A stretch of 64,000 nt of DNA. It comes from an uncultured Candidatus Saccharibacteria bacterium (lineage in GTDB: Bacteria > Patescibacteriota > Minisyncoccia > UBA6257). A program made the translations under genes and the position numbers. Under the pieces are notes generated by a model. It made no database searches, was not told the origin of the DNA, and saw only the letters and a program-made list of their open reading frames with translations. Below, one piece after another: positions 5,286 through 64,000 of the stretch (the stretch's first letter is position 1; each line of letters opens with the position of its first letter). The DNA lies in the NCBI GenBank assembly GCA_964479005.1, contig CAYZJA010000001.1:80642-144641 (forward strand), in the 5' to 3' direction.

Positions 5286-5999
5286 ATGAAATTAGATAAA
5301 AAAGTAGCTTTAGTAACAGGCGGTTCAAATGGCATTGGAAAAGCTATTGCCCAGAGATTTTTAGATGAAGGAGCAAAGGTTATAATCTTTGATATTGTAA
5401 AACCAGATTATGATGTGAATTTTTATAAAGTTGATATAAGTAAAGAGGAACAAATCAGAAAAGCGTTTGAGAAAATTGAAGAATTAGATATTGTTGTTAA
5501 TAACGCTGGAATTTATTTTCAAGCATCTGTTGAAGAAACATCAGGCGAACAATTAGACAAAATGATGGATGTAAACTTTAAAGGAGCATATTTGATTTCT
5601 AAATACGCGCTTCCTTTGGTTAGAAAAAACAAAGGAAATATTATCAATATTTCTTCTGCCATTGGAATTGCACCTGAGCCAGGATCTCCAGCTTATTGTT
5701 CATCTAAAGCAGCGATAATAATGCTTACTAAATGTATGGCTCAGGAATATGCTGCAGAAGGAATAAGAGTAAATGTGATATTACCAGGACCTATAGATAC
5801 TCCATTATTGAGAAGAGTTCTTTCTTCTGATGAAGCGATTCATAAGTATGCTGAGTTAAATCCCATGAGAAGAATTGGAAAACCTCAAGATGTTGCAAAT
5901 GTGGCAGTCTTTTTGGCTTCAGATGAAGCAGGTTATGTAACTGGTGGAATATATTCAGTGGATGGCGGAGAATCCAGTTCTAGCCGATATTCAAAATAA
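5286..5999 (+). CDS. short-chain dehydrogenase/reductase (SDR) family oxidoreductase
   Basis: TGGSNGIGKAIA Rossmann motif, NNAG, catalytic S...YCSSK. Confidence 0.85.
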   Translation: MKLDKKVALVTGGSNGIGKAIAQRFLDEGAKVIIFDIVKPDYDVNFYKVDISKEEQIRKAFEKIEELDIVVNNAGIYFQASVEETSGEQLDKMMDVNFKGAYLISKYALPLVRKNKGNIINISSAIGIAPEPGSPAYCSSKAAIIMLTKCMAQEYAAEGIRVNVILPGPIDTPLLRRVLSSDEAIHKYAELNPMRRIGKPQDVANVAVFLASDEAGYVTGGIYSVDGGESSSSRYSK

Positions 6000-6046
6000 G
6001 AACCTGCTTCGCAGAACCTTGTTTTTCATTTCATTCAAAATAACAA

Positions 6047-6577: not shown

Positions 6578-7363
6578 TTGTATATGTCCCAATATTACAA
6601 TTCACAAAGAACGCATGGATTATATGATTCTGCTTCAAAAGAGCCGTTTAAAATTTCGCGGTCAAAAATTGATTTGTTTTTGCAATGTCCGCGATGTTTT
6701 TATTTGGACAGAAAATTGGGAGTCGCGCGGCCGCCAGGATTTCCATTTGCTTTAAATAGCGCTGTTGATACTTTACTAAAACAGGAATTTGATATTTATC
6801 GCGCTAAAGGCGCAAAACATCCTTTTATGGAAACTTATAAGGTTGATGCTGTTCCTTTTAAACATGAAAAGCTTGAAGAATGGCGTGATGCAAGAACAAG
6901 GGGAATAACTTATCTCCACAAACCAACAGATTTATTAATTACTGGTGGCATTGATGATATTTGGGTAAATTCTAAAGGAGAATTAATTATTGTTGATTAC
7001 AAGGCAACATCAAAGAACGGAGAAGTGAGTTTAGACGCTGATTGGCAGATTAGCTATAAAAGACAAATGGAAATATATCAGTGGTTGTTTAGAAAAAACG
7101 GATTTAAAGTTTCTGATACTGGATATTTTGTTTATTGTAACGGTAAAACAGATGTAAAAGTTTTTGATAATAAATTGGAATTTGATGTCACTTTAATAGC
7201 ATATAAAGGTGATGATTCTTGGATAGAAAAAACTATTTCTGATATTCATAAATGTTTGAATAATGATAAAATTCCAAAAGCAGACGCTGATTGTGATTAT
7301 TGTAACTATGTTGAATCAGTAAAATCTAAAACAATAGAATCTAAAAACGGAACATTGTTTTAG
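6578..7363 (+). CDS. stand-alone Cas4/RecB-like PD-(D/E)XK nuclease with Fe-S cysteines
   Basis: N-terminal QCPRCFY plus C-terminal CDYCNY give four Cys. Motif II GGIDDIW, motif III IVDYKAT, Q-h-x-x-Y RQMEIYQW. No CRISPR array in the window. Confidence 0.6.
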   Translation: MYMSQYYNSQRTHGLYDSASKEPFKISRSKIDLFLQCPRCFYLDRKLGVARPPGFPFALNSAVDTLLKQEFDIYRAKGAKHPFMETYKVDAVPFKHEKLEEWRDARTRGITYLHKPTDLLITGGIDDIWVNSKGELIIVDYKATSKNGEVSLDADWQISYKRQMEIYQWLFRKNGFKVSDTGYFVYCNGKTDVKVFDNKLEFDVTLIAYKGDDSWIEKTISDIHKCLNNDKIPKADADCDYCNYVESVKSKTIESKNGTLF

Positions 7364-12493: not shown

Positions 12494-12521
12494 GGTGTGG
12501 GGGTTGACAAATTATTTTTCT
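12494..12521 (+). promoter_or_regulatory. sigma70-like promoter TTGACA-N16-TATACT (sRNA copy 1)
   Basis: ggggttgacaaattatttttctttgctatact; paralogous to the promoters at 54247 and 57847. Confidence 0.6.
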
Positions 12522-12527
12522 TTGCTA

Positions 12528-12596
12528 TACTAAAGATGCCGTTGTTTTGAGATATGTAGCTTGCTATATATCAATGGGCAGCGGCATTTTTTTTTG
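12528..12596 (+). ncRNA. small RNA / structured leader, copy 1 of a two-member family
   Basis: AAGATGCCGTTGTTTTGAGATATGTAGCTTGCTATATATCAATGGGCAGCGGCAT then U9. The 5' ATGCCG pairs with the 3' CGGCAT. Homologous to 54281-54342 with a compensatory C-G to U-A change in that stem. Confidence 0.5.
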
Positions 12597-17979: not shown

Positions 17980-18393
17980 ATGCCTACTTTACATCAATTA
18001 ATTAAAAAAGGGAGAAAATCAATTGTGAAGAAGAGCAAATCAGTTGCTCTGTCTTTTTCTTTTGATACTATAAAAAATAGGCCAAGCAATCATCCATCTT
18101 CTTTTAAAAAAGGTGTTTGCTTAAAAGTTTTTACAGCAACTCCAAAAAAGCCAAACTCCGCTTTACGAAAAGTAGCTAGAGTGAAATTAAGCAATGGCAT
18201 GGAAGTTACCGCATATATTCCAGGAATAGGGCATAATTTACAGGAGCACTCAATAGTCTTAGTAAGAGGTGGAAGAGTAAAAGATTTGCCAGGAGTTCGT
18301 TATCATGTAGTTCGTGGCAAACATGATATTTCTGGAGTAGATGGAAGAAAACAGCAAAGAAGTAAATATGGAACAAAAAAAGCAAAAGAATAA
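17980..18393 (+). CDS. rpsL: 30S ribosomal protein S12, with ~13-aa internal insertion
   Basis: [12 protein letters not shown]...[60 protein letters not shown]. Confidence 0.97.
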
Positions 18394-18402
18394 GCATCTA
18401 TT

Positions 18403-18870
18403 ATGAGGAGAAAACATAGACAAGAAAAAGAATATGAACCAGATTTAATTTATAAAAGCGCTTTAGCGACGCGTTTTATTAATTATTTAATGAAAGATGG
18501 AAAAAAGTCAGTGGCGCAGAGAGTTCTTTATAACACAATGGAAAATATTAAAAAACAAACTAAGCAAGATCCATTGAGTATTTTTGATTTAGCTATTAAA
18601 AATGTTTCACCAGAATTAGAAGTTAAAAGCAGAAGAATAGGAGGCGCTAATTATCAAGTTCCTCAAGCGGTTCCTGAATATAGAAAAACCACATTAGCTT
18701 GCCGTTGGATTATTAATATGGCCCGGGCTAAAAAAGGAAAAACAATGGCAGAAAGATTAGCAGAAGAATTAATTCTGGCTTCGAAAAACGAGGGAGCAGC
18801 TATAAAGAAAAAATTAGATATTCATCGTATGGCTGAGGCAAATCGCGCTTTTGCTCGTTTTCGTTTCTAA
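18403..18870 (+). CDS. rpsG: 30S ribosomal protein S7
   Basis: [27 protein letters not shown]...[17 protein letters not shown]. Confidence 0.95.
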
Positions 18871-23965: not shown

Positions 23966-24424
23966 ATGGGTATTTTGAATATTTTTAAAAATAAGAACCT
24001 TTTTCGTTCTACTCAAAAGAACCTTGTTTCTCGTGATGCTCGAAATAAGAAAATCGAAGAAAAAAAGGTTGAGAAAGAGAAAACCAAAAAGCCAGTAGCA
24101 GAAGAAAAGAAAGTTGAAATAAAAGGGAAGATTGTTTTAGAAGGATCCTCTTCGGCATTGTTGATTAATCCTTATTTGAGCGAAAAGTCTACTAGTTTAA
24201 GAGAGCAAGAAAATAAATATATTTTTAAAGTTAGCCCTAGAGCGACAAAAAACGAAATAAAAAAACTTTTAGAAAATATTTACAATGTGGAGGTAACCAA
24301 GATTAATGTAATAAATACCCCTGCTAAGCCTAAAAGATGGAGACAGAAAAAAAGATATTTTAACAGGAGTAAAAAAATGATGGTTACCATAAAGAAAGGC
24401 CAAAAAATAGAATTAGGAATATGA
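23966..24424 (+). CDS. rplW: 50S ribosomal protein L23 with ~60-aa K/E-rich N-terminal extension that contains AAGAACCTT repeat copies
   Basis: C-terminal YIFKVSPRATKNEIKKLLENIYNVEVTKINVINTP is L23. Confidence 0.85.
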   Translation: MGILNIFKNKNLFRSTQKNLVSRDARNKKIEEKKVEKEKTKKPVAEEKKVEIKGKIVLEGSSSALLINPYLSEKSTSLREQENKYIFKVSPRATKNEIKKLLENIYNVEVTKINVINTPAKPKRWRQKKRYFNRSKKMMVTIKKGQKIELGI

Positions 24425-27203: not shown

Positions 27204-27404
27204 ATGGTAAAAGCAAAAGAATTACGATTAAAACCCGAAGAGGAATTAAATCAATTACTGTCTGAATCCCAAAAGAAATTACGGGAATTGAGGTTTAATT
27301 TGGCTAGCGGAAAAGTTAAAAACGTACGCACCATTCGTGTTTTGAAAAAGAACATTGCGAGAATTTTAACTATTTTAAATGAAGAAAATGAAAATCAACT
27401 CTAA
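27204..27404 (+). CDS. rpmC: 50S ribosomal protein L29
   Basis: MVKAKELRLKPEEELNQLL...LRFNLASGKVKNVRTIRVLKKNIARI. Confidence 0.9.
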   Translation: MVKAKELRLKPEEELNQLLSESQKKLRELRFNLASGKVKNVRTIRVLKKNIARILTILNEENENQL

Positions 27405-27528
27405 TTATGAGCCAAAGGCGAATAACAAGGTTCTTATTATGAGCAAAGCAAATAACAAGGTTCTTATTATGAGCCAAAGGCGAATAACAAGGTTCTTATT
27501 ATGAGCAAAGCAAATAACAAGGTTCTTA
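27405..27528. repeat. 2 x 62-bp tandem repeat filling the rpmC-rpsQ spacer; member of the AAGAACCTTG repeat family in inverted orientation
   Basis: ttatgagccaaaggcgaataacaaggttctta + ttatgagcaaagcaaataacaaggttctta, duplicated. Each half carries a micro-ORF (atgagccaaaggcgaataacaaggttcttattatga = [11 protein letters not shown]). Confidence 0.9.
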
Positions 27529-27529
27529 T

Positions 27530-27838
27530 ATGGAAAAACAAATTAAAAAACAAAAAAGGATATTAAAAGGAGAAGTTATATCAGACAAGATGGATAAAAC
27601 TGTTGTAGTTAAGGTTTCCAGATTGAAAGTGCATCCGAAATATAAGAAGCGCTATAAAATTACCAAGCGTTTTAAAGCCCATGATGAGAAGAATGAGTGT
27701 CGTGTAGGCGATAAAGTAATGATTGAAGAAACAAGGCCTCTATCTAAAGGGAAAAGATGGAAAGTGAAACATAAAGAACAAATAACAAATAATAAGAAAG
27801 AAGATGATTCAACCGCAGACAATATTAAAAGTAATTGA
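27530..27838 (+). CDS. rpsQ: 30S ribosomal protein S17 with C-terminal extension overlapping rplN
   Basis: [64 protein letters not shown]. Confidence 0.9.
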
Positions 27839-30253: not shown

Positions 30254-30658
30254 ATGAATAAAAATAGCAAAAGAGAGCAAAGAGAAAAAAGGCATAGAAG
30301 AGTAAGGGCAAAGATCCATGGAACAAAAGATAGGCCCCGTCTTTGTATTTTTAAATCCAATAAGCATATTTACGCTCAAATTATTAATGATGATAAGGGA
30401 TTTACACTCGTTTTTGCTTCAGATTTAGAAATCAAAGATTCAAAAAAAGATAAGAACCTTGCTTCGCAAGAACCTTGTTATTCGCCTTTGGCTCATAATA
30501 AAAAAATTAATTTAGCTCAAAAAGTTGGGGAATTAATAGCTAAGAGGGCAAAAGATAAAAAAATAACGAAAATTCTTTTTGACAGAGGTGGATTTAAATA
30601 TCACGGTCAAGTGAAAACTTTAGCTGATGAAGCCAGAAAACACGGATTACAGTTTTAA
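30254..30658 (+). CDS. rplR: 50S ribosomal protein L18 carrying a ~15-aa in-frame insertion encoded by an AAGAACCTTG-family repeat copy
   Basis: [21 protein letters not shown]...[45 protein letters not shown]. The insert [14 protein letters not shown] is encoded by 30452-30497. Confidence 0.9.
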
Positions 30659-35310: not shown

Positions 35311-35769
35311 ATGAATGAACTTTGGACTATTATTATTGCTGGTTCTCCGATAGTTGAATTGCGAGGGGCGATTCCTGTGGCTATGGGAATTTTTAATTTT
35401 GCTTGGCCTAAAGCGTTAATTTTAAGTTTAATTGGGAATATTTTACCAATTATTCCTATAATTTGGTTTTTAGACAAATTATCTGATTATTTGAGTAAAC
35501 AATTTGATATTTTTAATCGTTTTTTTAATTGGCTTTTTGAAAGAACTAGGAAAAAGACAGAAAACAGCTTTAATAAATGGGGAAAATGGGCCTTAGTGGC
35601 ATTTGTTGCGATTCCTTTGCCTTTTACAGGGGTTTGGACTGGTTCAATAGCGGCATTTTTGTTTGGTGTTAAGTACAGAAACGCTTTTTGGCTTATTAGT
35701 TTGGGAGCGCTTTTTGCCGGGATATTAGTTACGATTTTAACTCTTTTAGGCACAAATATATTTTCATGA
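35311..35769 (+). CDS. small membrane protein, COG2426 / Sm_multidrug_ex-like
   Basis: PIVELRGAIPVAMG motif and four TM helices. Confidence 0.4.
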   Translation: MNELWTIIIAGSPIVELRGAIPVAMGIFNFAWPKALILSLIGNILPIIPIIWFLDKLSDYLSKQFDIFNRFFNWLFERTRKKTENSFNKWGKWALVAFVAIPLPFTGVWTGSIAAFLFGVKYRNAFWLISLGALFAGILVTILTLLGTNIFS

Positions 35770-36542
35770 ATAAATTTATTGTTTTTAATTTTAAAATGGC
35801 CCCAGCATCTCTTGTAGAAGCAAAAGAAATTTTTCAAATTTTTAAAAAGTTTGCGCAAAAAACTAAGCCGAACAAAATAATTATAGCGCCGCCTTCTATC
35901 TATTTAGCAGAAGCGTCAGATGTTTTTCAAAAAGAATGCATCTTAGGGGCTCAAGATGTTTTTTGGTTTAATCGTAATTCTGCTACGGGAGAGATTTCAC
36001 CTAAGATGTTAAAATCATTGGGTGTAGAATATATTATTGTTGGGCATTCTGAAAGACGAGAATATTTTAATGAAACTAACGAAATAATTAATTCTAAAAT
36101 AAAAGCCTGTCTAAGTAATGATTTAACTCCGATTCTCTGTATTGGAGAAAAAGAGAGAAAAAAAGGGGATTGTTCTTTATCTTTCCGGATAAAAAAGATT
36201 CTTTTTGAACAATTAAATTATGCTCTAAGAGGCATTATTCTCGAGAAATCCACAGATTTAGTCATTACTTATGAGCCAGTTTGGGCTATTAGCGCTAATC
36301 AACCAAAAGAATTGGAAGATCCAGAAGAAATTGAAAAAACAATTAGTCTTATTCGTTTTTGGCTTGCCAGACGATTTTCAGAAAATATAGCAAAAAATAT
36401 ACATATTCTTTATGGCGGTTCAGTAGACTCACAGAATATTTCTTCTTTTTTGTCTTTGAAAGAAATTAACGGAGTTTTAGTTGGTCGAATGAGTACAAAT
36501 AAAATAGGCCTTAAAAAACTTTTTAAAAAAATAATAAAATAA
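35766..36542 (+). CDS. tpiA: triosephosphate isomerase
   Basis: IIAPPSIYL...GAQDV...GEISPKMLKSLGVEYIIVGHSERR...YEPVWAI...GGSV. Confidence 0.9.
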   Translation: MNKFIVFNFKMAPASLVEAKEIFQIFKKFAQKTKPNKIIIAPPSIYLAEASDVFQKECILGAQDVFWFNRNSATGEISPKMLKSLGVEYIIVGHSERREYFNETNEIINSKIKACLSNDLTPILCIGEKERKKGDCSLSFRIKKILFEQLNYALRGIILEKSTDLVITYEPVWAISANQPKELEDPEEIEKTISLIRFWLARRFSENIAKNIHILYGGSVDSQNISSFLSLKEINGVLVGRMSTNKIGLKKLFKKIIK

Positions 36543-38010: not shown

Positions 38011-39195
38011 TTGAAGATATTTATGAAGTCCATTAGATCTGCAAATATTTTGGGTCAGCTTGTTTTAATGAGAGTGGATTTTAATATTCCTGTTAAAAAT
38101 GGCAAGGTTTTAGATGATTTTCGTATTCAGCGCGTTTTACCGACCATTCAATTCTTAAGAGATAAAAAAGCGAAAAAGATTATCTTAATTTCTCATTTAG
38201 GTCAGCCAGATGCTAAAGACAGAGATAAACCAGAATTTAGTTTAGCTCCAATCGCGAGTCATTTAGAAAAATTAATTGGGGAAAGTGTATATTTTACAGC
38301 AATGTTAATTGGAAAAGGTCTAAAACAAGAAATTGAAAATCTACCAGATGGTTCCATAATTCTTTTAGAGAACATTCGCTTTTATAAAGAAGAGAATCAG
38401 AATAATAAAAATTTTGCTAAACAATTAGCAAAAATAGCTGATATTTTTATTAATGAAGCTTTTTCAGTTTGTCATCGCAAGATAGCTTCTTTATGCGCAA
38501 TAACAGAGTTCCTGCCTTCTTATGCAGGAATTTTGCTTGGAGAAGAGTTGGTTAATTTAAATAAACTTATTCAAAAACCGCAACATCCTTTAGTTGTAAT
38601 TTTGGGCGGAGTTAAAATAAAAGACAAAATATCTGTTATAGAGAAATTTAAGAATAAAGCTGATTTCATTTTATTAGGCGGAGTTATGGCTAATACGTTT
38701 TTAAAGGCAAATGATTTTTCTATTGGTAAGTCACTTCATGATGAAGAATCTTTTACACAAGTGAAAGATTTAAACATTGGAAAAACAGAGTTGATTTTAC
38801 CTGGTGACTTTGTGGTTTTAGATAAAAATAATCAAAAACAAATAAGAGAATTGGGGAAAATAGCTGAAAATGATAAAATTCTTGATATTGGGCCAATAGC
38901 TTGTGATACTTTTTCTAAAATTATTTCTAAAGCAAAAACAGTATTTTTTAATGGTCCTATGGGGAAATTTGAAGATAAAAGATTTTCTGATGGAACCAAT
39001 AAGATTATTAATGCAGTTATTGAAAATAAATTAGCTTTTTCAGCAATAGGCGGAGGAGAAACTATTGCCTGTTTTAGATTTTTTAATTCCAAATTCCAAA
39101 TTCCAAATTCTATATTCTTATCAACGGGCGGTGGGGCAATGCTTAAATATCTTGCTGGCGAATCTTTACCCGGCTTAGTAGCACTAAATAAATAA
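38011..39195 (+). CDS. pgk: phosphoglycerate kinase
   Basis: LMRVDFNIPVKNGKVLDDFRIQ...LENIRFY...VMANTFL...GGGA. Confidence 0.9.
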   Translation: MKIFMKSIRSANILGQLVLMRVDFNIPVKNGKVLDDFRIQRVLPTIQFLRDKKAKKIILISHLGQPDAKDRDKPEFSLAPIASHLEKLIGESVYFTAMLIGKGLKQEIENLPDGSIILLENIRFYKEENQNNKNFAKQLAKIADIFINEAFSVCHRKIASLCAITEFLPSYAGILLGEELVNLNKLIQKPQHPLVVILGGVKIKDKISVIEKFKNKADFILLGGVMANTFLKANDFSIGKSLHDEESFTQVKDLNIGKTELILPGDFVVLDKNNQKQIRELGKIAENDKILDIGPIACDTFSKIISKAKTVFFNGPMGKFEDKRFSDGTNKIINAVIENKLAFSAIGGGETIACFRFFNSKFQIPNSIFLSTGGGAMLKYLAGESLPGLVALNK

Positions 39196-42714: not shown

Positions 42715-44310
42715 ATGGCTAGTTTTAGAAAAATATTAAACCATAAATCTGAAACAATTTTTGGTGCTGCAATGCTAATGAGCAGTTTGACATTGTTTGG
42801 CGCTTTTTTGGGTATTTTGAGAAACGCACTTTTGGCTAGCCGCTTTGGAGCTTCTGGAAATTTAGATATCTATTATGCTTCTTTCCGTTTGCCTGATATG
42901 ATCTATAATATTTTTATTATGGGCGCTATTTCTGCTGCTTTCATTCCTGTTTTTAGCCAGTACTGGGCAAAAGATGAAAAAAAAGCATGGCAATTTTCTA
43001 ATGCCATCCTTTTAATTATTGGTTCTTTTGTTGGGACATTAGCTCTATTAGTCGCGATATTTACAAAGCCTCTTTTATCCCGCCTTTTAGTGGGCTTTAG
43101 TCCTGATCAATTAGCAATAGCTGTTACCTTGACAAGAATTATGATGATTCAGCCTATCTTAATGGGAATTTCTTCTGTTGCTGCGAGTATTTTAAAAATA
43201 TTTAAATTATTTTTAGCCAGCGCCTTGGCGCCCTTAGTTTATAATTTAGGAATAATAATCGGCATTCTTTTTTTAGTTCCATCAATGGGCTTAAAAGGAT
43301 TAGCATGGGGAGTGGTTTTAGGGGCTTTATTGCATGTTTTAGTCCAAATTCCAGTCCTTTTTGGAACAGGTTATAAATTTACTTTTAATTTCTCTATTTT
43401 TAGGGAGTTAGATAATGGTCTAAAAAAAGTGGTTTTAATGATGGTTCCTCGTTCCTTAGGGATTATTGCTTATCAGGTTTTTCTTTTGGGTATTACTGCC
43501 ATAGCCAGTATGTTAAGAGAGGGAAGTATTGCTGTATTTAATTTTGCTAACGATATTCAGAATTTGCCTCAAACAGTTTTTGCATTGTCTTTTGCTGTTG
43601 CCGCTTTTCCAAGTTTATCAAAGTTAAACGTTGAAAAAAGATATAAAGATTTTGTTAAAACTTCTTTTGATACTCTTCTACAAATTTTCTTTTTCCTTAT
43701 CCCTATAGCTGTTTGGTTTTTCATTTTCCGCGAACCTATTATTCGATTTTTATTGGGGTATGGAAAATTTGATTGGACTTCTACGGTGAAAACGATACAA
43801 GTTTTTTCGGTTCTTTCTTTTGGAATGATTTTTCAAGGTGTTAACGCTTTTCTCTTGAGAGTATTTTTTGCAAAAGGAGATGCTTTAAAGCCATTTATTG
43901 CCAGTGTGATTTCTTATTCAACAGGATTCTTTTTGTGCTATAAATTAGGAATATCTTTTGGAGTAGTTGGTCTAGCCATTGCAGTAGCAATTACCTATCT
44001 TTTTTATTTTCTTATTCTTTTTCTTTTATTAAAAGCATATGTTCCTATTTCTTTATTGAAAAAGTTTTATTATTCTTTAGGGAAAATAACCATTGTTTCT
44101 CTATCAAGCGGAATAGTGGCTTATTTATTCTTTGCTTTTCTTAAGGGAATCTTTTCTATAGATAAAGTAATCAATTTGGCATTGTGCGCTTGCGTCGCTT
44201 TTATAATTTCTTTTGCCGTGTTTGTAGTTCTTTGTAATTGGTTTAAGATTAAAGAAATAGATGAATTAAAAAGAGTTGTTCTTCAAAAAATATATGGAGC
44301 AAAAGAATAA
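42715..44310 (+). CDS. murJ: lipid II flippase MurJ (MviN)
   Basis: LGILRNALLASRFGASGNLDIYYASFRLPDMIYNIF; 14 TM. Confidence 0.9.
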   Translation: MASFRKILNHKSETIFGAAMLMSSLTLFGAFLGILRNALLASRFGASGNLDIYYASFRLPDMIYNIFIMGAISAAFIPVFSQYWAKDEKKAWQFSNAILLIIGSFVGTLALLVAIFTKPLLSRLLVGFSPDQLAIAVTLTRIMMIQPILMGISSVAASILKIFKLFLASALAPLVYNLGIIIGILFLVPSMGLKGLAWGVVLGALLHVLVQIPVLFGTGYKFTFNFSIFRELDNGLKKVVLMMVPRSLGIIAYQVFLLGITAIASMLREGSIAVFNFANDIQNLPQTVFALSFAVAAFPSLSKLNVEKRYKDFVKTSFDTLLQIFFFLIPIAVWFFIFREPIIRFLLGYGKFDWTSTVKTIQVFSVLSFGMIFQGVNAFLLRVFFAKGDALKPFIASVISYSTGFFLCYKLGISFGVVGLAIAVAITYLFYFLILFLLLKAYVPISLLKKFYYSLGKITIVSLSSGIVAYLFFAFLKGIFSIDKVINLALCACVAFIISFAVFVVLCNWFKIKEIDELKRVVLQKIYGAKE

Positions 44311-46081
44311 GAATATTAGAAATTTTGTTATAATTGCGCATATAGATCATGGTAAGTCTACTTTGGCTGATAGATTTTTGGAAATAACAAATACTATTTC
44401 CCAGAATAAACTAACACCACAATACTTGGATGGGATGGCTTTAGAAAAAGAACACGGGATTACTATTAAAATGCATCCTGTTCAGATGAATTATAATGGT
44501 TTTATTTTAAATCTTATCGATACTCCCGGTCATGTAGATTTTACTTATGAAGTTTCCCGCGCTTTAGCTGCTGTAGAAGGGGCTATATTATTAGTTGATG
44601 GTATTCAAGGGATTCAAGCGCAGACACTTTCTAATCTCCAATTAGCTAAGGAGCAAAAATTGAAAATTATTGGCGCTATTAATAAGATTGATTTAGATAT
44701 TCATGATTTAGAAAACAGGAAAAAAGAACTAGCAGATTTATTAAATATAACAAGTGATGATATTATTCTTGTTTCTGCTAAGACAGGTGAAAATGTGGAT
44801 TTATTATTGAAAAAAATCATTTCTGAGATTCCTGAACCAGTTATTAATGAAAAATTACCTTTTCGCGCTTTAATTTTTGATTCCCATTATGATTATTATA
44901 AAGGAGTAATAGCTTATGTTCGCGTTGTAGAAGGTGAAATTAAAAAAAGGGAAAAGATTATTTTTGCTGCAAGTAAAACAAAAGGTGATATTGTAGATTT
45001 GGGTTATTTTGCTCCAGAATTAAGACCAAAGGAAAGCTTGAAATCTGGAGAAATAGGATGGATAGCCACTGGTTTAAAAAATCCAGGATTAGTGAGAGTG
45101 GGTGATACAATAACCAAAAAACTGCCAATAGAGATTTTGCCAGGATATAAAGAACCAAAACCAATGGTATTTGCCGGTTTCTATTTGGCTAAAGGTGGTC
45201 AGGATTTTGAGAATTTTCGTTATTCTTTATCCCAATTAAAATTAAATGATTCTGCTATCTATTTTATTCCCGAAAATTCGGAAGTATTGGGAAGAGGTTA
45301 TCGTTTAGGATTTTTAGGAATGTTGCACTTAAAAATTACACAAGAGCGGCTTAAAGATGAATATGGGTTAGATTTGATTATTACTCATCCCACTGTACCG
45401 TACAAAGTTTTGTTAAAAGGCGATAAGGCGCCAAAGATTATTACTAATCCAAGTAAATGGCCACTTTCAGATGAAATTCTTTATTGTGAAGAACCTTGGG
45501 CAAAAATGGAAATTATCACACCTTTAGAATATTTATCAGTAATTTTGAAACTTATTAACGACTCTCGTGGTCAGGATATAAATACGCTTAGTCTTTCAGA
45601 TAGGCTGATAATTACTTGCCAGATTCCTTTAGAAGAGGTCATCAAAGATTTTTATGATAATTTAAAATCTATCTCTTCGGGATATGCTTCTTTAAATTAT
45701 GAAATATCTGGATATAAAAAGACTCAATTAGAAAAATTGGAAGTAATTTTAGCGGGAAAAACATTCCAAAGTTTGTCTAGAATAATTTTTGAAAAAAAGG
45801 CAGAAAAGGAAGCTAGGAGTTTGGCCTTAAAACTTAAAAAGATTCTATTACGCCAGAATTATCCAGTTTCTATTCAGGTAAGAGCGTTTGGGAGAATTGT
45901 TGCCAGGGAAACTTTATCAGCGTTAAAAAAGGATGTGACGGCAGGCCTTTATGGAGGCGATAGAACAAGAAAGATAAAAGTTTTGAAAAGACAACAAAAA
46001 GGAAAAAAAAGATTGTTGGATAAAGCTAATCTTCAGGTTCCCCCAGAAGTTTTTCTTAAGATTTTTTCTAAATCCGATTAA
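44294..46081 (+). CDS. lepA: elongation factor 4 (LepA)
   Basis: IRNFVIIAHIDHGKSTLADRFLEIT...DTPGHVDFTYEV...NKIDL; LepA C-terminal domain. Confidence 0.95.
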   Translation: MEQKNKNIRNFVIIAHIDHGKSTLADRFLEITNTISQNKLTPQYLDGMALEKEHGITIKMHPVQMNYNGFILNLIDTPGHVDFTYEVSRALAAVEGAILLVDGIQGIQAQTLSNLQLAKEQKLKIIGAINKIDLDIHDLENRKKELADLLNITSDDIILVSAKTGENVDLLLKKIISEIPEPVINEKLPFRALIFDSHYDYYKGVIAYVRVVEGEIKKREKIIFAASKTKGDIVDLGYFAPELRPKESLKSGEIGWIATGLKNPGLVRVGDTITKKLPIEILPGYKEPKPMVFAGFYLAKGGQDFENFRYSLSQLKLNDSAIYFIPENSEVLGRGYRLGFLGMLHLKITQERLKDEYGLDLIITHPTVPYKVLLKGDKAPKIITNPSKWPLSDEILYCEEPWAKMEIITPLEYLSVILKLINDSRGQDINTLSLSDRLIITCQIPLEEVIKDFYDNLKSISSGYASLNYEISGYKKTQLEKLEVILAGKTFQSLSRIIFEKKAEKEARSLALKLKKILLRQNYPVSIQVRAFGRIVARETLSALKKDVTAGLYGGDRTRKIKVLKRQQKGKKRLLDKANLQVPPEVFLKIFSKSD

Positions 46082-46848: not shown

Positions 46849-47136
46849 ATGGCTACAAAAAAATTTAGTCCAACAAGAACAATAACGCAAAAAAACCTCG
46901 AAAATGTACCTGGCGACAAGCCAGGTGTCTATCGCATCAAAAACGCGTCAAATGATATTCTTTACATAGGTAAAGCAAAAGGAGGTAGATTAGATGACAG
47001 AATCGCTGAACATAAAGGACAATTCCAAGGTGGAACGAAATTCCAGTATAGATTAACTCACAGCAAAGATGCCGCCGAGCGATTAGAGCGTAAAGAAATT
47101 CGTGAATGGAAACCGCCTAGAAATAAAGATAAATAA
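46849..47136 (+). CDS. small stand-alone GIY-YIG nuclease-domain protein
   Basis: KPGVYRIKNASNDILYIGKAKGGRLDDRIAEH...ERKEIREWKPPRN has GIY/YIG, Arg and Glu positions. Confidence 0.6.
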   Translation: MATKKFSPTRTITQKNLENVPGDKPGVYRIKNASNDILYIGKAKGGRLDDRIAEHKGQFQGGTKFQYRLTHSKDAAERLERKEIREWKPPRNKDK

Positions 47137-54227: not shown

Positions 54228-54246
54228 AAGTTATCCACAATGGGAC

Positions 54247-54274
54247 TTGACAAGATTTAAATGTTTGCTATACT
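54247..54274 (+). promoter_or_regulatory. sigma70-like promoter TTGACA-N16-TATACT (sRNA copy 2)
   Basis: gggacttgacaagatttaaatgtttgctatact. Confidence 0.6.
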
Positions 54275-54280
54275 ACGGAT

Positions 54281-54342
54281 GCTGTCGTTTGGAAGTATTT
54301 GTTAGCTTGCTAATGGATATGGAAGAGTGGCAGCATTTTTTT
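54281..54342 (+). ncRNA. small RNA / structured leader, copy 2
   Basis: ACGGATGCTGTCGTTTGGAAGTATTTGTTAGCTTGCTAATGGATATGGAAGAGTGGCAGCAT then U7. Conserved core GTAGCTTGCTA; terminal stem ATGCTG / CAGCAT. Confidence 0.5.
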
Positions 54343-59382: not shown

Positions 59383-61131
59383 ATGAATAAACAATTATTC
59401 TCTAAAACGATTTCACTTTTCTTAGTTTTTTCTTTGGTGTTCGTAGGTGTTTCAATATTTTCACCAAATAATATTGAAGCTAAAGGACAGAAACCAAATA
59501 ACAAAATATCAATTTGTCATAGAACTAGTTCTGCTACTAATCCTTGGAATGTAATTAATGTTAGTGTTAATGCTCAAGATGCTCACTTAGCTCATGGAGA
59601 TTTTCTTTATGAAGGTAGTTATCCAGTGAATTCTAAAGAAGCAGAGGAATGGTGTGGCATGACTAGATATACTTGTAATGAAAGTACTTGGCAATGTGTA
59701 ATTGATAACCAAGGTCAATATTCAAGTTATGATGATTGTTCAACTGTTTGTCAGGAACCAATGGCAACTGTAACAATTTGTAAATATGACGAAGAAAGGA
59801 ATCCTTTAAGTGGATGGAAAATGATTTTGAAAGGGGATTTGCAAGACCAAGTAACTGTTTTTCCTGATGGGTCAGCATATTTGTCAGGAGATTTACCATT
59901 AGAAGATTATTTATTAATGGCTTCTGGTCAATATGTTTATAGGCCTGGAACTTTAGGGGCTGAATATTCTGATGCTGGCTATACTAAGAGGAATTGTCCA
60001 GGAGATGCTACTTATTTATGTAGTGGTCCCTATACCCCATGGTTTAATGTTTTTGATATTATAGGTATTCATAAAGGATGGTTGGGGATTATGGTTAATG
60101 ACGCCGCAACTAATTGGGGTTCTTACTTTAACTCTGCTCATACTTATGCTCTGGGATATCCTAATTATAGTGGTTCATTATCTTTTACAATTAAAGATGA
60201 TGTGTATAGTGATAATTCAGGACAATTAAATGTTGATATTTATAAAGGATATACTGGGGAGACAGATGAAAATGGTTGTATAACCTTTAATGATGTTCCT
60301 TTGGAAACTTATTCTCTTGAGGAAATTCTTAAAGATGGATGGCAAAATGTTAGTGGTTTAGGACAGATTGTTATTGATGAATCTCAAGAAACTTTTGATG
60401 TGATTAATAGTGAAATTAAAAGCGAAAAAGAACTAGCATGCATAAATTCAGGTGGCACAGTTGGAACAGGTATATGCTGCAAAAGTGTAGAAGGTTTTCC
60501 AAATGATTGTGCTACAGGAGCCTGCGGTTGTTCTGCAGGAGATAGCCATGAAGTTCAGGTTTGTAATTGTCCAGCAGGCAAATGTTTTGATGGAAATTCC
60601 TGCGTAACAAAATGTGAAGAAGGAATTAATCTTCTTAAAAACGGTAGTTTCGAATATCCGGAAGTAACTAATACAAGCAAATGGCAGTTATTTCCATCAG
60701 GGACAGCTCTACTTGAATGGGTAGTTGGATGGGTTAGCGCTGCTCCATCAGACCCTCCAACAATTGAAATACAGAAAGGCGTAGTAGTTTCTCCTAGTAA
60801 TGGACTTCAAAGCATTGAATTAGATTCAGAAGCTCCAACCTATATTTCTCAAGCAGTTAATACAGAATCTGGCTATGGATATAAATTAAGCTTTGATTTT
60901 GCAGCCAGGCCTAATACTTCAGAAGAAGATAATAAATTAGAGGTTTGGGCTGATAGTATTCTTAAAGATAGTATTAGCAGCAATACATCTTGGCAAACAA
61001 AAACATATAATTTTAATGCTACTTCTAACCTTACGGAAATCAAATTCGTGGATATAGGAATTCCTAATACCGATTCAATGGGTACATTATTAGATAATGT
61101 TAAATTAGAATGTGTTCCGCCGGTTCTGTAA
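59383..61131 (+). CDS. secreted Cys-rich surface protein with a C-terminal jelly-roll-like module (NGSFE...LDNV), paralogous to the next gene
   Basis: Signal peptide; 30+ Cys; segments ICKYDEERNPLSGWKMILKGD and EYSDAGYTKRNCPGDA recur in the downstream ORF. C-terminal NGSFEYPEV...IELDSE...YKLSFDFAARP...LLDNVKLECV. Confidence 0.55.
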   Translation: MNKQLFSKTISLFLVFSLVFVGVSIFSPNNIEAKGQKPNNKISICHRTSSATNPWNVINVSVNAQDAHLAHGDFLYEGSYPVNSKEAEEWCGMTRYTCNESTWQCVIDNQGQYSSYDDCSTVCQEPMATVTICKYDEERNPLSGWKMILKGDLQDQVTVFPDGSAYLSGDLPLEDYLLMASGQYVYRPGTLGAEYSDAGYTKRNCPGDATYLCSGPYTPWFNVFDIIGIHKGWLGIMVNDAATNWGSYFNSAHTYALGYPNYSGSLSFTIKDDVYSDNSGQLNVDIYKGYTGETDENGCITFNDVPLETYSLEEILKDGWQNVSGLGQIVIDESQETFDVINSEIKSEKELACINSGGTVGTGICCKSVEGFPNDCATGACGCSAGDSHEVQVCNCPAGKCFDGNSCVTKCEEGINLLKNGSFEYPEVTNTSKWQLFPSGTALLEWVVGWVSAAPSDPPTIEIQKGVVVSPSNGLQSIELDSEAPTYISQAVNTESGYGYKLSFDFAARPNTSEEDNKLEVWADSILKDSISSNTSWQTKTYNFNATSNLTEIKFVDIGIPNTDSMGTLLDNVKLECVPPVL

Positions 61132-61237: not shown

Positions 61238-64000
61238 ATGAAAAAACAATTTTTCTCTAAAACATTTTCAATTTTCTTGGCACTTTCTTTTGTACTTTCT
61301 AATAGCGCAATGTTAGTGCCATTACAAGCTGAAGCTTGTGAGGAAGAAATATGCGAAGACGTTATTGTGGTAAGTAATATAGAAGATAAGGTTTTTGATA
61401 TTGCAGAAACTCTTCCCGGTGAAGCAGCTGTTCTTGCTTGGGATGATCATCCGGCATGGACAGCGTATATTGAAGGCGCAAATTGGATTTGGAAGACAGA
61501 ATATGTAGAAAATCCTGATCAAGACGAAACATATATATTTAAAAAAGATTTTGATATTGTTGGCATTCCAGATTCTGCAACATTAAAAGTTGCAACTGAT
61601 AATTCGTATAGTGTTTGGGTTAACAATGTTTTGATTGGAGAAGTTATAACTGAAGATAATCACAGTTCAACAACCCAAGATCAATATAATAATATCGTTG
61701 ACTTTCATACCGGTTCAAATGAAATTAAATTTGAAGTTAAAAACTGGGCAGGAAATGCGTCACCGAAATTAAATCCTGCAGGTCTTTTGTATAGACTTGA
61801 GATTGTAAGATCTTCTTGTGAACCTCAATGTATACCTCAATCTTCTATAGAAACAGACTGTACTAATGGTTTAGATGATGACTGCGATGGTTTTATTGAT
61901 AGTGAAGATTCTGATTGTCAGATGTTAATAATGGCTTCTAAAGTAATTTGTGATAATGAATCAGATTTACCTAATTGGGGGACAGGATCTGGAGTTGACT
62001 ATCCTTCATATAACATTGATCAAAACACAGCTTCGGATTATGTAGCTGAACATTCTGGTTGTTATTTAGCTTCTAATTGGTTTTTTCAATGGGGACAACA
62101 AGGTTCTGATGATTTTGGAAAAGACTTTTATGGAGAAGCTGGCAATGGCTACACTACTTTTGGGCCAACAAATGAAAATGGAGTAGCTAGTACAACAGTG
62201 GATTCTGTTACCGGTAGTTATTTGGAATTAAGGGAAGTTCTGCAGCAAGGTTATATTCCTTTTACGTATGACCAATCACATAAATCTAATGATAATAATA
62301 TTTCTGCAGAATTTTATTGCCACAATGATATTCTCAATTATGATAACTGGGATTATATAAAAAATCCTCAATTAGGAATTACTCATTATTGCGTTGGATT
62401 TAATGCATTAATCGAACAAGAAGAACCAGAACCTGTTTGTGGAAATGAAATTATAGAAACTGGTGAACAATGTGATCCACCTTCAACCACTGCTCCTAAT
62501 TCTACTGATGAATATTTCTGTGACCAAAATTGTAATTTAGTTCCTATCTATCATTCTCTGGATGGTTGTCCAAAAAATCAAATCCTAGAATTTATTCAGT
62601 CTTATCAAATTCATTCAACTAGTACGACAGAAGTTATTATTCCTGTGAGTGGTAGCGATACATATAAGTTTGAAGTTAAAGGAACTTTTTATCCTACTCA
62701 AAATGGAAAAAATGAGAATTTCCTATCAGATGCCGCCTATACGACTGAAGATGGCTGGGTTTCAACTTCTACAAAATACGGAATTAAAGGCATACCACCT
62801 GATTATGCTGCCCATGCTTTATTAGGTGATTTAGGATTAGGGGCTGGAGTAATTAATTGGGGAGATTATGATTCTTCTCATGAATATGATTTCTCTTACA
62901 CAATTCCTTCAGGCGCTACTTCTACTCAATTTGTGATAGGTGATAGATGGGATAATTGGTTTATACCAGATGATATTAGTTGGAATAATCAAGGCGGAAT
63001 GAAAGATAATCTTGGAAATTTGACTTTAGATGTTTATGAGTGTAAGCCAATCCAAGCTAGATGTGATCCTAAGTTAGAATTAGTTATGAATGGCGATTTT
63101 GAGAGTCCTGAAGTGACTGATCTAGTAAAAAAATGGGGTATTTTTCCATCAGGGACAACCGATTTAGAATGGTTAATTAATTGGAGAGAAATTTGGCCTT
63201 CAGCACCAAAAATAGCAAATCTTGAAATTCAGAAAAGTTATTATACTCCAGTAATAGCTCCTGTAGTTCCTGGAGATCCAGATCAATATGCTGAGTTAGA
63301 TACTGATTGGCATGGTCCAGGTGGACCTTCTGGTGAACCAGCCTCAGTAGCTATTTCTCAAGATATTCCAACAATTATAGGGGAAACTTATAGATTAAGT
63401 TTTGATTTTTCACCACGACCATATACTGATTTAGAACAGAATCATTTAAAGGGTTTTGTTGATAGCGCTGAATTATTTGATATTTCTGCTGATGGTTCTG
63501 GTTTAACAGATACTTTATGGAATCAATATTCTGATAATTTTGTTGCTACAAGTTCAATAACAAACATTAAATTTACTGATTATGGTACACCAGACTCTTT
63601 AGGCACTTTCTTAGATAATGTTAGCGTAAGATGTGTTCCTCAGGACGAACCTACTATGTATCATTGTAATGAGGAATGGCAATGTATAGCAGATCCTGAA
63701 GGTGAATATAATACTGATAATTGTGACAATCAATGTATTAAACCTGGAACATCCACAGTTACTATTTGTAAATATAATGAACAAGAAGAACCTTTAAGAG
63801 GTTGGAAGATGATACTTAAAGGTGATAGGTATGATACAGTGCCTGTTTTTCCAGATGGGCAAAATTATTCTTCAAATCCTTTGCTATTAGGTGATTACTT
63901 AATTCAGGCTTCTGGTCAATATTTATATAGACCAGGAACACCTGGCGCTGAGTATTCTGATGCTGGCTATACTAAGAGGAATTGTCCAGGAGATGCTGAT
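61238..64000 (+). CDS. giant secreted Cys-rich surface protein, 3' partial (runs off the window), with at least two NG(D/S)FE...LDNV modules
   Basis: Open frame from ATG 61238 to the window end. Signal peptide. Repeats the ICKYNEQEEPLRGWKMILKGD and AEYSDAGYTKRNCPGDA blocks; the latter is nucleotide-identical to 59960-60010. Confidence 0.55.
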   Translation, partial: MKKQFFSKTFSIFLALSFVLSNSAMLVPLQAEACEEEICEDVIVVSNIEDKVFDIAETLPGEAAVLAWDDHPAWTAYIEGANWIWKTEYVENPDQDETYIFKKDFDIVGIPDSATLKVATDNSYSVWVNNVLIGEVITEDNHSSTTQDQYNNIVDFHTGSNEIKFEVKNWAGNASPKLNPAGLLYRLEIVRSSCEPQCIPQSSIETDCTNGLDDDCDGFIDSEDSDCQMLIMASKVICDNESDLPNWGTGSGVDYPSYNIDQNTASDYVAEHSGCYLASNWFFQWGQQGSDDFGKDFYGEAGNGYTTFGPTNENGVASTTVDSVTGSYLELREVLQQGYIPFTYDQSHKSNDNNISAEFYCHNDILNYDNWDYIKNPQLGITHYCVGFNALIEQEEPEPVCGNEIIETGEQCDPPSTTAPNSTDEYFCDQNCNLVPIYHSLDGCPKNQILEFIQSYQIHSTSTTEVIIPVSGSDTYKFEVKGTFYPTQNGKNENFLSDAAYTTEDGWVSTSTKYGIKGIPPDYAAHALLGDLGLGAGVINWGDYDSSHEYDFSYTIPSGATSTQFVIGDRWDNWFIPDDISWNNQGGMKDNLGNLTLDVYECKPIQARCDPKLELVMNGDFESPEVTDLVKKWGIFPSGTTDLEWLINWREIWPSAPKIANLEIQKSYYTPVIAPVVPGDPDQYAELDTDWHGPGGPSGEPASVAISQDIPTIIGETYRLSFDFSPRPYTDLEQNHLKGFVDSAELFDISADGSGLTDTLWNQYSDNFVATSSITNIKFTDYGTPDSLGTFLDNVSVRCVPQDEPTMYHCNEEWQCIADPEGEYNTDNCDNQCIKPGTSTVTICKYNEQEEPLRGWKMILKGDRYDTVPVFPDGQNYSSNPLLLGDYLIQASGQYLYRPGTPGAEYSDAGYTKRNCPGDAD

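Follow-up and report, generated by a model that had tools for sequence, protein, structure and literature searches.

A dispersed two-hairpin mini-repeat, probably mobile, within and between ribosomal protein genes of a Candidatus Saccharibacteria bacterium

How does one short repeat come to lie between, and in frame inside, the genes of a ribosomal protein operon? The question is raised by a 64,000-nt stretch of DNA from an uncultured Candidatus Saccharibacteria bacterium (contig CAYZJA010000001.1, positions 80,642 to 144,641 of the forward strand; hereafter the window), in which the spacer between rpmC (L29) and rpsQ (S17) is filled by a tandem array. The original prediction, made from the letters of the window, took this array for part of a dispersed mini-repeat able to sit both intergenically and in frame within essential ribosomal protein genes, with further copies in rplR (L18), rplW (L23) and at the 3' end of an SDR gene, and that description holds. 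We propose that the window probably contains four insertions of a small non-autonomous mobile element, comparable to the Rickettsia palindromic elements (RPEs) or to repetitive extragenic palindromic (REP) sequences. Genomes of the Candidate Phyla Radiation are about 0.5 Mb in size and are regarded as streamlined, with little mobile DNA; the surprise here is that a tiny repeat seems to reshape the most conserved operon of the cell and to add peptides to L18 and L23.

One repeat at four sites of the window

A covariance model, R1, was built from 14 foreign copies of the repeat, taken from unrelated metagenome contigs. A scan of the window with R1 returned four sites (E about 1e-11) with their flanking partial units and nothing else, and these are the four that had been named, matched here by a model trained solely on foreign sequences (Table 1). 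The window also holds eight exact occurrences of the decamer AAGAACCTTG against 0.21 expected from a shuffle control, and three occurrences of the 32-mer unit at no more than one mismatch against none expected; a lone AAGAACCTTG at 45489 is a chance match, as there is no model hit there.

Read directly, the 124 nt from the rpmC stop to the rpsQ ATG are made up of four units (32, 30, 32 and 30 nt) joined head to tail, a count that rests on short-read assemblies in which tandem copy number could be collapsed. Tandem Repeats Finder agrees (27400-27529, period 62, 2.1 copies, 98% matches, score 253, with a period-30 reading as well), and the predicted 2 x 62-bp repeat is therefore correct. The register of the array is uncertain by 1-2 nt, and 27405-27528, as first given, denotes the same 124 nt. 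On the minus strand the 32- and 30-nt units read AAGAACCTTGTTATTCGCCTTTGGCTCATAAT and AAGAACCTTGTTATTTGCTTTGCTCATAAT, each composed of AAGAACCTTGTT, a second hairpin and AAT. The units of about 31 bp from which the prediction started are real, but they are truncated elements without the first hairpin, a full element in the window measuring about 48-54 nt. The array is probably a locally amplified and truncated derivative of the element.

The rplR copy links the array to the complete form. Its first hairpin, CTTGC-TTC-GCAAG, had been picked out as a possible RNA structure and is the first hairpin of the family described below, while its last 32 nt equal the 32-nt spacer unit in inverse orientation (at most one mismatch); the inverted match between 27461-27497 and 30468-30504 extends over 37 nt at 97%. 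This 32-nt identity argues for recent spread, and the rplR copy is likely to be a recent insertion of the same subfamily as the spacer array. The rplW copy is complete and more diverged, and the copy at the SDR gene is degenerate.

The consequences for the two proteins differ. L18 has 118 amino acids (aa) in nearly all of 120 listed homologues against 134 in the window, and the insert peptide was found in none of 13 aligned homologues, one of them 97% identical; the insertion is thus absent from typical L18, as had been supposed. In an AlphaFold model of L18 of modest overall confidence (mean predicted local distance difference test score, pLDDT, 64.5), residues 63-82 of the insert score below 50 and have no secondary structure, so that the insert is modelled as an unstructured loop before a long helix. 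For L23, the suggestion that the repeat generates the N-terminal extension needs correction: relatives without the element already have the extension (134-144 aa), which the element lengthens by 18 aa.

The window repeats are not an assembly artefact. An identical spacer and an identical L18 insert occur in independent assemblies from other samples (JGI 3300005782, loci L002 and L007), and an identical SDR copy in yet another (JGI 3300008516, locus L332). Short-read Logan contigs stop within the repeats, which is expected for true repeats.

Anatomy and hosts of the element family

A metagenome scan with a pattern derived from the units gave at least 120 matches, and nearly all of those listed share features that the pattern did not contain: an upstream ATAAGAACCT, a hairpin of free sequence, a second hairpin, and a 3' AAT followed by AA. 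R1 then recognized about 290 copies in all: 144 across 100 metagenome loci, 85 across 80 genome loci and another 68 in an additional set. On its own strand the element consists of AAGAACCT, hairpin 1, AGAACCTTGTT, hairpin 2 with a covarying stem, and an AAT end. It is about 50 nt long (42-56 nt), strand-asymmetric and often repeated in tandem arrays of 48-56 nt. Hairpin 1 is free in sequence, with GC, CG, UA and AU pairs interchanging, and may be anything from 6 to about 70 nt long. In hairpin 2 an outer stem, TT[T/A][C/T] paired with [G/A][A/T]AA, encloses a TC x TC internal mismatch and a GC-loop-GC, with T as the last base; the mismatch, which on the opposite strand is a tandem G.A, is invariant, and the outer stem alternates between TTTC/GAAA, TTAT/ATAA, TTAC/GTAA and TTTT/AAAA. 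In the 144 metagenome hits pairing holds for 91% of cells, and double changes are seen at 12 of the 16 pairs; none of 500 shuffles reached the observed value, and slid controls were only 31-58% paired.

The family is apparently undescribed. Rfam 15 gave no match over any copy, either in the window at gathering score or in related loci at E up to 1, and no description of the element was found in the literature consulted, a search by sequence string giving only primers. A looser pattern, AAGAACCTTG N3-25 AGAACCTTG, was tried on viral contigs and abandoned as too unspecific (67 unrelated hits).

The hosts are diverse. In a scan of a genome collection the host list was taken from the matches listed, nearly all of which R1 confirmed. 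Among these were many Patescibacteria (Shapiro-, Wildermuth-, Parcu- and Saccharibacteria, Paceibacterota) and, unexpectedly, many gut and rumen Clostridia (Acutalibacteraceae, Ruminococcaceae, Oscillospiraceae); a few viral contigs also carry the element. Contrary to what had been suggested, the repeat is therefore not lineage-specific. Patescibacterial loci often have several copies per 10-15 kb and clostridial loci usually one. The stem variants follow host groups, which favours a long stay in these hosts over a single recent transfer.

In gut and rumen Clostridia tRNA-Arg(CCT)-like genes are interrupted by the element after the D arm and before the anticodon stem (GGATAT^AATAAACC), and such interrupted copies usually lie 80-130 nt upstream of an intact tRNA-Arg(CCT). 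With the exception of the two in L256, which are otherwise full-length, most are truncated, and none is called by ARAGORN or Rfam. At a human-gut locus (L147, 2250-2560; the same locus in L096, L117, L128, L148, L160 and L166), modules made of a T-arm-like hairpin, the element, the tRNA-Gln acceptor 3' strand with CCA and a terminator-like hairpin are repeated downstream of tRNA-Gln. In clostridial and viral loci L206, L216, L230, L235, L252 and L324-L331, hairpin 1 is 40-70 nt long, with AAATCAAAGATTT conserved at its apex. Several genomes have the element embedded close to the tip of a bigger palindromic repeat (about 230 nt), of which the clostridial genome L230 has both a filled and an empty copy.

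Target site, gain and loss, and reading frame

The closest relative of the window, L008, is 95.7% identical across the operon; L009 and L014 are further relatives that were compared. A BLAST alignment of the operon with L008 breaks only at the three element copies, which L008 lacks and which are the only large indels in 14 kb. Wherever an empty and a filled allele could be paired, at three window sites (Table 1) and one in L230, the insert is an exact number of whole units. From these alignments the element has evidently been gained or lost cleanly between 96%-identical genomes.

The target is short and specific. Upstream of non-tandem copies A is found in 80 of 90 and T in 88 of 90, for a consensus of A-W-A-T, and the two downstream positions are A in 63 and 67 of 85. 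Insertion is after AT at all six resolved sites (L18, L23, L29/S17, SDR, tRNA-Arg-like and tRNA-Gln), with no target duplication seen beyond an ambiguous 2 nt (AT or TA). Because the element starts with AA and ends with AAT, AT^AA is recreated at both junctions, making TAA stops and earlier copies natural targets and explaining the head-to-tail arrays. It also explains why copies lie exactly on TAA stops: for 23 of 155 copies, that at the SDR gene of the window included, the junction TAA closes an open reading frame (ORF) of 60 codons or more.

Copies inside genes tend to keep the frame. Deleting the element in silico gave back an ORF reaching at least 40 codons to either side for 25 of 60 copies whose length is divisible by three, as against seven of 72 others (Fisher p = 3e-5); lengths are divisible by three in 57 of 99 unique elements. 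Since splicing would impose no such constraint, it implies that the copies are translated and not spliced, and we consider it probable that intragenic copies are transcribed and translated as an extra peptide. Genes hit in relatives encode methionine aminopeptidase, a reverse transcriptase and membrane proteins, and also S17 and L29.

Other small inserts were seen in the same genes of relatives. The L18 genes of L014 (9381-9776) and L012 (994-1428) have different, unrelated in-frame hairpin inserts a few codons upstream of the window insert site, one of 39 nt whose 12-bp inverted repeat is perfect (ACCCTGTTGAAT...ATTCAACAGGGT) and the other of 78 nt with a longer inverted repeat; one L18 loop has thus apparently been hit repeatedly by different small elements. 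The L23 extension of L014 (2960-3040) contains a further in-frame repeat type, AAACCCTCC[G/T]TCGCTAAAG..., with a CCCTCC/GGAGGG hairpin, and that of L009 a 30-nt tandem duplication. At the 3' end of rpmC in L008 (7190-7275) a half-element variant, AACAACGTTCTTGAGCGATAGCGAAAGGTTGTTAT, supplies a new stop (L29 of 71 instead of 66 aa), and behind it comes a duplicated leftover of the former rpmC 3' end. A different insert, resembling a transposable element of the miniature inverted-repeat kind (MITE) with terminal inverted repeats CCCCGTTAGAAATT...AATTTCTAACAGGG, lies in the EF-G/EF-Tu spacer of L008 (about 700-860) and the L14-L24 spacer of L014 (7073-7303); the window is without it at the corresponding sites.

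Table 1. Copies of the element, host genes, target sites and associated features (window positions unless a locus is named)
Feature	Position	Strand	Remarks
Degenerate 44-nt element, SDR 3' end	5998..6041	+	SDR stop codon formed by the junction T^AA (5997-5999)
R1 hit, SDR 3' end	5996-6044	+	56.7 bits
Complete, more diverged 54-nt element in rplW	23993..24046	+	in frame, 18 aa, Lys/Glu-rich N-terminal extension
R1 hit, rplW	23991-24049	+	55.2 bits
Array of truncated units	27404..27527	-	27498-27527 (30 nt), 27466-27497 (32), 27436-27465 (30), 27404-27435 (32)
R1 hit, spacer	27433-27499	-	59.0 bits
Complete 48-nt element in rplR	30452..30499	+	in frame, 16 extra aa
R1 hit, rplR	30450-30502	+	58.7 bits
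rplW (L23)	23966..24424	+	152 aa, 134-144 aa in relatives; hosts in-frame copy
rpmC (L29)	27204..27404	+	66 aa; stop 27402-27404 adjoins the array
Micro-ORF chain	27407..27566	+	27407-27442 (11 codons), 27439-27504 (21), 27501-27566 (21, overlaps rpsQ start)
rpsQ (S17)	27530..27838	+	102 aa; ATG at 27530, 2 nt past the array
rplR (L18)	30254..30658	+	134 aa, 118 aa in relatives; hosts in-frame copy
L18 site			empty allele in relatives TTCAAAAAAAG AT AAAAAG; window insert 48 nt
L29/S17 site			empty allele in relatives (L008, L009) CTCTAATATGG; window insert 124 nt
L23 site			empty allele AAAAAG AAAAAAG in relatives (element absent in L008, L009, L014); window insert 54 nt
Interrupted tRNA-Arg(CCT)-like genes	L256 about 620-760, about 830-960; L142 5975-6080; L153, L212, L217, L221, L226, L250, L278, L281		

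Mobile element or functional sequence

We propose that the element inserts at A-W-A-T^A-A without detectable target duplication and may multiply locally into head-to-tail arrays. Insertions in genes would persist only where the frame is kept and the segment is permissive, such as a loop on the surface of L18 and the N-terminal tail of L23, which is of low complexity. Mobilization would occur in trans, by a host- or phage-encoded enzyme recognizing the conserved boxes and hairpin 2, most likely of the HUH/Y1 single-strand DNA transposase type (IS200/IS605 or REP-associated tyrosine transposase, RAYT). Such enzymes act on subterminal hairpins and insert beside a short specific sequence without duplication or footprint (PMC6006769; PMC3597680). 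The type is put forward because the element has a mismatched hairpin with a fixed box, no inverted termini, site-specific insertion without duplication, clean gain and loss, and self-targeting. The outer-stem sequence TT[T/A][C/T] covaries with the 3' [G/A][A/T]AA, and this could reflect either a stem or guide-site pairing.

Several observations weigh against this proposal. ORFs called and clustered from 100 loci gave no transposase adjoining the copies and no recurrent family. There was also no transposase or RAYT gene in the ribosomal operon of the window or among the window ORFs outside it that were scanned with Pfam, a scan that covered all but 17980-18867 (S12/S7), 35311-36539 (Sm_multidrug_ex and TIM), 38011-39192 (PGK) and 44276-46078. 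The element ends 1 nt after hairpin 2, unlike the geometry of IS608. A match between the target and the 3' end of the element itself reached significance when raw copies were counted; it is not claimed, as p was about 0.06 once tandem remnants and related loci were removed. Because no transposase was found, the geometry differs and this match was lost on de-duplication, the mobilizing step is one that we can only infer. Thermodynamic folding of the window copies was no better than that of shuffled sequences (z = -1.3 to +0.5), and as these AT-rich copies are not significantly stable the structure is taken from family covariation alone. The linear boxes are far better conserved, from Patescibacteria to Clostridia, than is usual for REP-type repeats, and the conserved apical AAATCAAAGATTT hints at a function or at very conserved recognizing machinery. 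Lastly, the L29/S17 junction holds one complete related element in the more distant L014 and is empty in L008 and L009, a pattern that appears to need two independent events, either two precise losses or two gains at one site.

Two reverse-transcriptase loci close to copies were set aside as coincidental, and in one the element lies inside the gene. The window encodes a small GIY-YIG protein of 95 aa (46849-47133), similar to one found far from the copies in four of the 100 loci, and a PD-(D/E)XK or Cas4-like nuclease (6578-7360) about 540 nt downstream of the SDR copy; neither has an evident link to the element.

Another explanation is that the element is a functional structured RNA, for example an mRNA stabilizer, a processing site, a protein-binding element or a small RNA, which was duplicated for its usefulness and whose coding copies are by-products. 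The strong covariation of the two hairpins would fit this, as would the boxes kept across phyla, the conserved apical loop of hairpin 1 in clostridial and viral copies, the many copies directly after stop codons and the recurrence upstream of tRNA-Arg(CCT) in Clostridia, sometimes behind promoter-like sequence. However, a single operon holds both orientations, minus in the spacer and plus in rplR and rplW, and in these two genes the tandem G.A would be on the strand opposite to that transcribed. There is no consistent neighbouring gene, and a test of clostridial downstream genes for a cis-regulator found none in common. Copies come and go between 96%-identical genomes and enter unrelated coding sequences, as well as tRNA genes that then decay, and no Rfam family matches. 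On balance we regard a functional RNA as unlikely.

One could also imagine that the array serves translation. The three micro-ORFs of the spacer are coupled through ATGA stop/start overlaps and might hand ribosomes on from the stop of rpmC to the start of rpsQ, a role that has been proposed for the mycobacterial interspersed repetitive units (MIRUs). The chain begins 2 nt after the rpmC stop and runs past the rpsQ start; the element ATG in L014 is in frame with rpsQ and is called as its start (119 aa); and both genomes with an element at this site have the minority, ATG-bearing form of the stem. That form, TTAT/ATAA in the outer stem of hairpin 2, is the source of the ATG, so the micro-ORF is not a feature of the family. 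The micro-ORFs of the original prediction are present as written and are not conserved, most copies having TTTC/GAAA, TTAC/GTAA or TTTT/AAAA at that place. As most family members have no ATG and a 1-nt stop-start spacer suffices in relatives, coupling would at best account for a variant tolerated at the rpmC-rpsQ site, not for the family, and it is improbable as its origin. MIRUs themselves, reportedly described by Supply et al. in 1997, are said to be 40-100-bp tandem units in operon spacers, with small ORFs that overlap the neighbouring stop and start codons. The likeness holds only for the window variant, the element family being dispersed, hairpin-based and often intragenic.

A mini-intron, removed from mRNAs and tRNAs, would account for the precise boundaries at every resolved site and for the otherwise full-length tRNA-Arg(CCT) genes of L256 with their insertion at 26/27. 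Intragenic copies are, however, overwhelmingly divisible by three and free of stops, which would be needless if they were spliced; most interrupted tRNA copies are truncated or decayed beside an intact copy, and no ribozyme family matches, which makes this very hard to believe. The genome is AT-rich and repeat-prone and short-read assemblers can mis-build tandem repeats, but the chance that coincidental similarity, replication slippage alone or an assembly artefact produced the repeat is negligible, given that shuffle controls yield none, independent assemblies agree, copies spread over 24 kb in both orientations and hundreds of homologous copies exist in other genomes.

How does the proposed mobile element compare with known repeats? 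As far as the account of Ogata et al. (2000) given in PMC10969869 goes, RPEs are short dispersed repeats of a reduced genome, found in frame within unrelated, often essential genes and translated. The element resembles them in its in-frame inserts of translated type (48 nt in rplR, 54 nt in rplW), in its presence in non-coding regions and in the surface segments that tolerate it. Unlike RPEs, which are about 100-150 bp long and form one long palindrome, it has about 50 nt, two short hairpins and direct-repeat boxes, forms head-to-tail arrays, and resides in Patescibacteria and Clostridia instead of Rickettsia. REP sequences, including bacterial interspersed mosaic elements (BIMEs) and REPINs, have a hairpin that varies between lineages and a fixed tag, and are mostly intergenic or placed after stops, occasionally genic (PMC3733652; PMC6006769). 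Both combine a short, imperfect hairpin with a conserved tag that precedes it unpaired. The tag itself is AGAACC(T), in AAGAACCT / AGAACCTTG, whereas the GTAG and CGTC of REPs are absent from the consensus; units are head to tail and not in inverted pairs, and the boxes are kept across phyla whereas REPs are largely species-specific.

IS200/IS605 and REP ends carry hairpins whose foot has a guide on its 5' side, together with a specific tetranucleotide in the flank and a right-end cleavage site (PMC6006769; PMC3597680). Like IS200/IS605 ends, the element has no terminal inverted repeats (AAGAACC... and ...GAAAT are not complementary) and has subterminal mismatched hairpins, and it is inserted next to a short specific sequence without duplication and with apparently clean gain and loss. 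Unlike the IS200/IS605 derivatives known as palindrome-associated transposable elements, it is ten times smaller and stops 1 nt after hairpin 2, hairpin 1 is not conserved, and no cognate transposase came to light in the loci and window ORFs scanned. It also differs from a classical MITE, in having neither terminal inverted repeats nor a target duplication of fixed length beyond the ambiguous 2 nt. Mobile repeats of about 21-27 nt that nest in one another and in other repeats were reportedly found in heterocystous cyanobacteria by Elhai et al. in 2008; these have another sequence, size and host range, while the present element has two covarying hairpins and frequent in-frame coding insertions. 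Judged by sequence, its behaviour is RPE-like and its architecture closer to that of tagged REPs, and it lacks defining features of each of RPE, REP and classical MITE. CRISPR arrays were discarded because units abut directly, the variable hairpin is identical within an array and there are no unique spacers; the anatomy likewise fits neither type III antitoxin repeats, DNA-uptake sequences and integron attC sites nor a tRNA-derived origin.

A more speculative possibility, which we raise tentatively, is that the element represents a new class of ultra-small mobile DNA: a module of about 50 nt whose AGAACC boxes and G.A-mismatch hairpin would be recognized by conserved machinery common to Patescibacteria, gut Clostridia and some of their phages. 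That machinery might consist of a HUH-type enzyme of a new kind, or else work by way of RNA or single-stranded DNA, with seamless insertion and excision at AT^AA. If so, the smallest bacterial genomes would harbour a general engine of peptide insertion in essential proteins and of tRNA gene disruption. In these lineages the copies can affect ribosomal-protein phylogenies and the alignment of marker genes, they can mislead gene callers through false N-terminal extensions and new stops, and metagenome assembly suffers as contigs break at them. The element family is also a natural experiment on the insertion-tolerant sites of essential proteins, and its conservation across phyla may point to an undiscovered recognizing enzyme, of interest for single-strand DNA insertion tools.

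The window lies on a 551,616-bp contig of JGI metagenome 3300028837. Its ribosomal protein operon is of the bacterial S10-spc type, without a gene for L30 between those for S5 and L15; the RNase P RNA that is also encoded is of bacterial class A, and the nearest named relatives of L18, among the 120 listed homologues, are Candidatus Pacebacteria and Patescibacteria. These features place the organism among the AT-rich, small-genome members of the Candidate Phyla Radiation. The window contains two further sets of repeats. Adjacent paralogous genes at 59383-61128 and 61238-64000 encode large secreted-type DUF642 proteins and have several DNA repeats of 50-240 nt in common. The 58-nt copies at 12498-12555 and 54241-54298 are 72% identical and comprise a near-consensus promoter (TTGACA, 17 nt, TATACT) with a common downstream leader.

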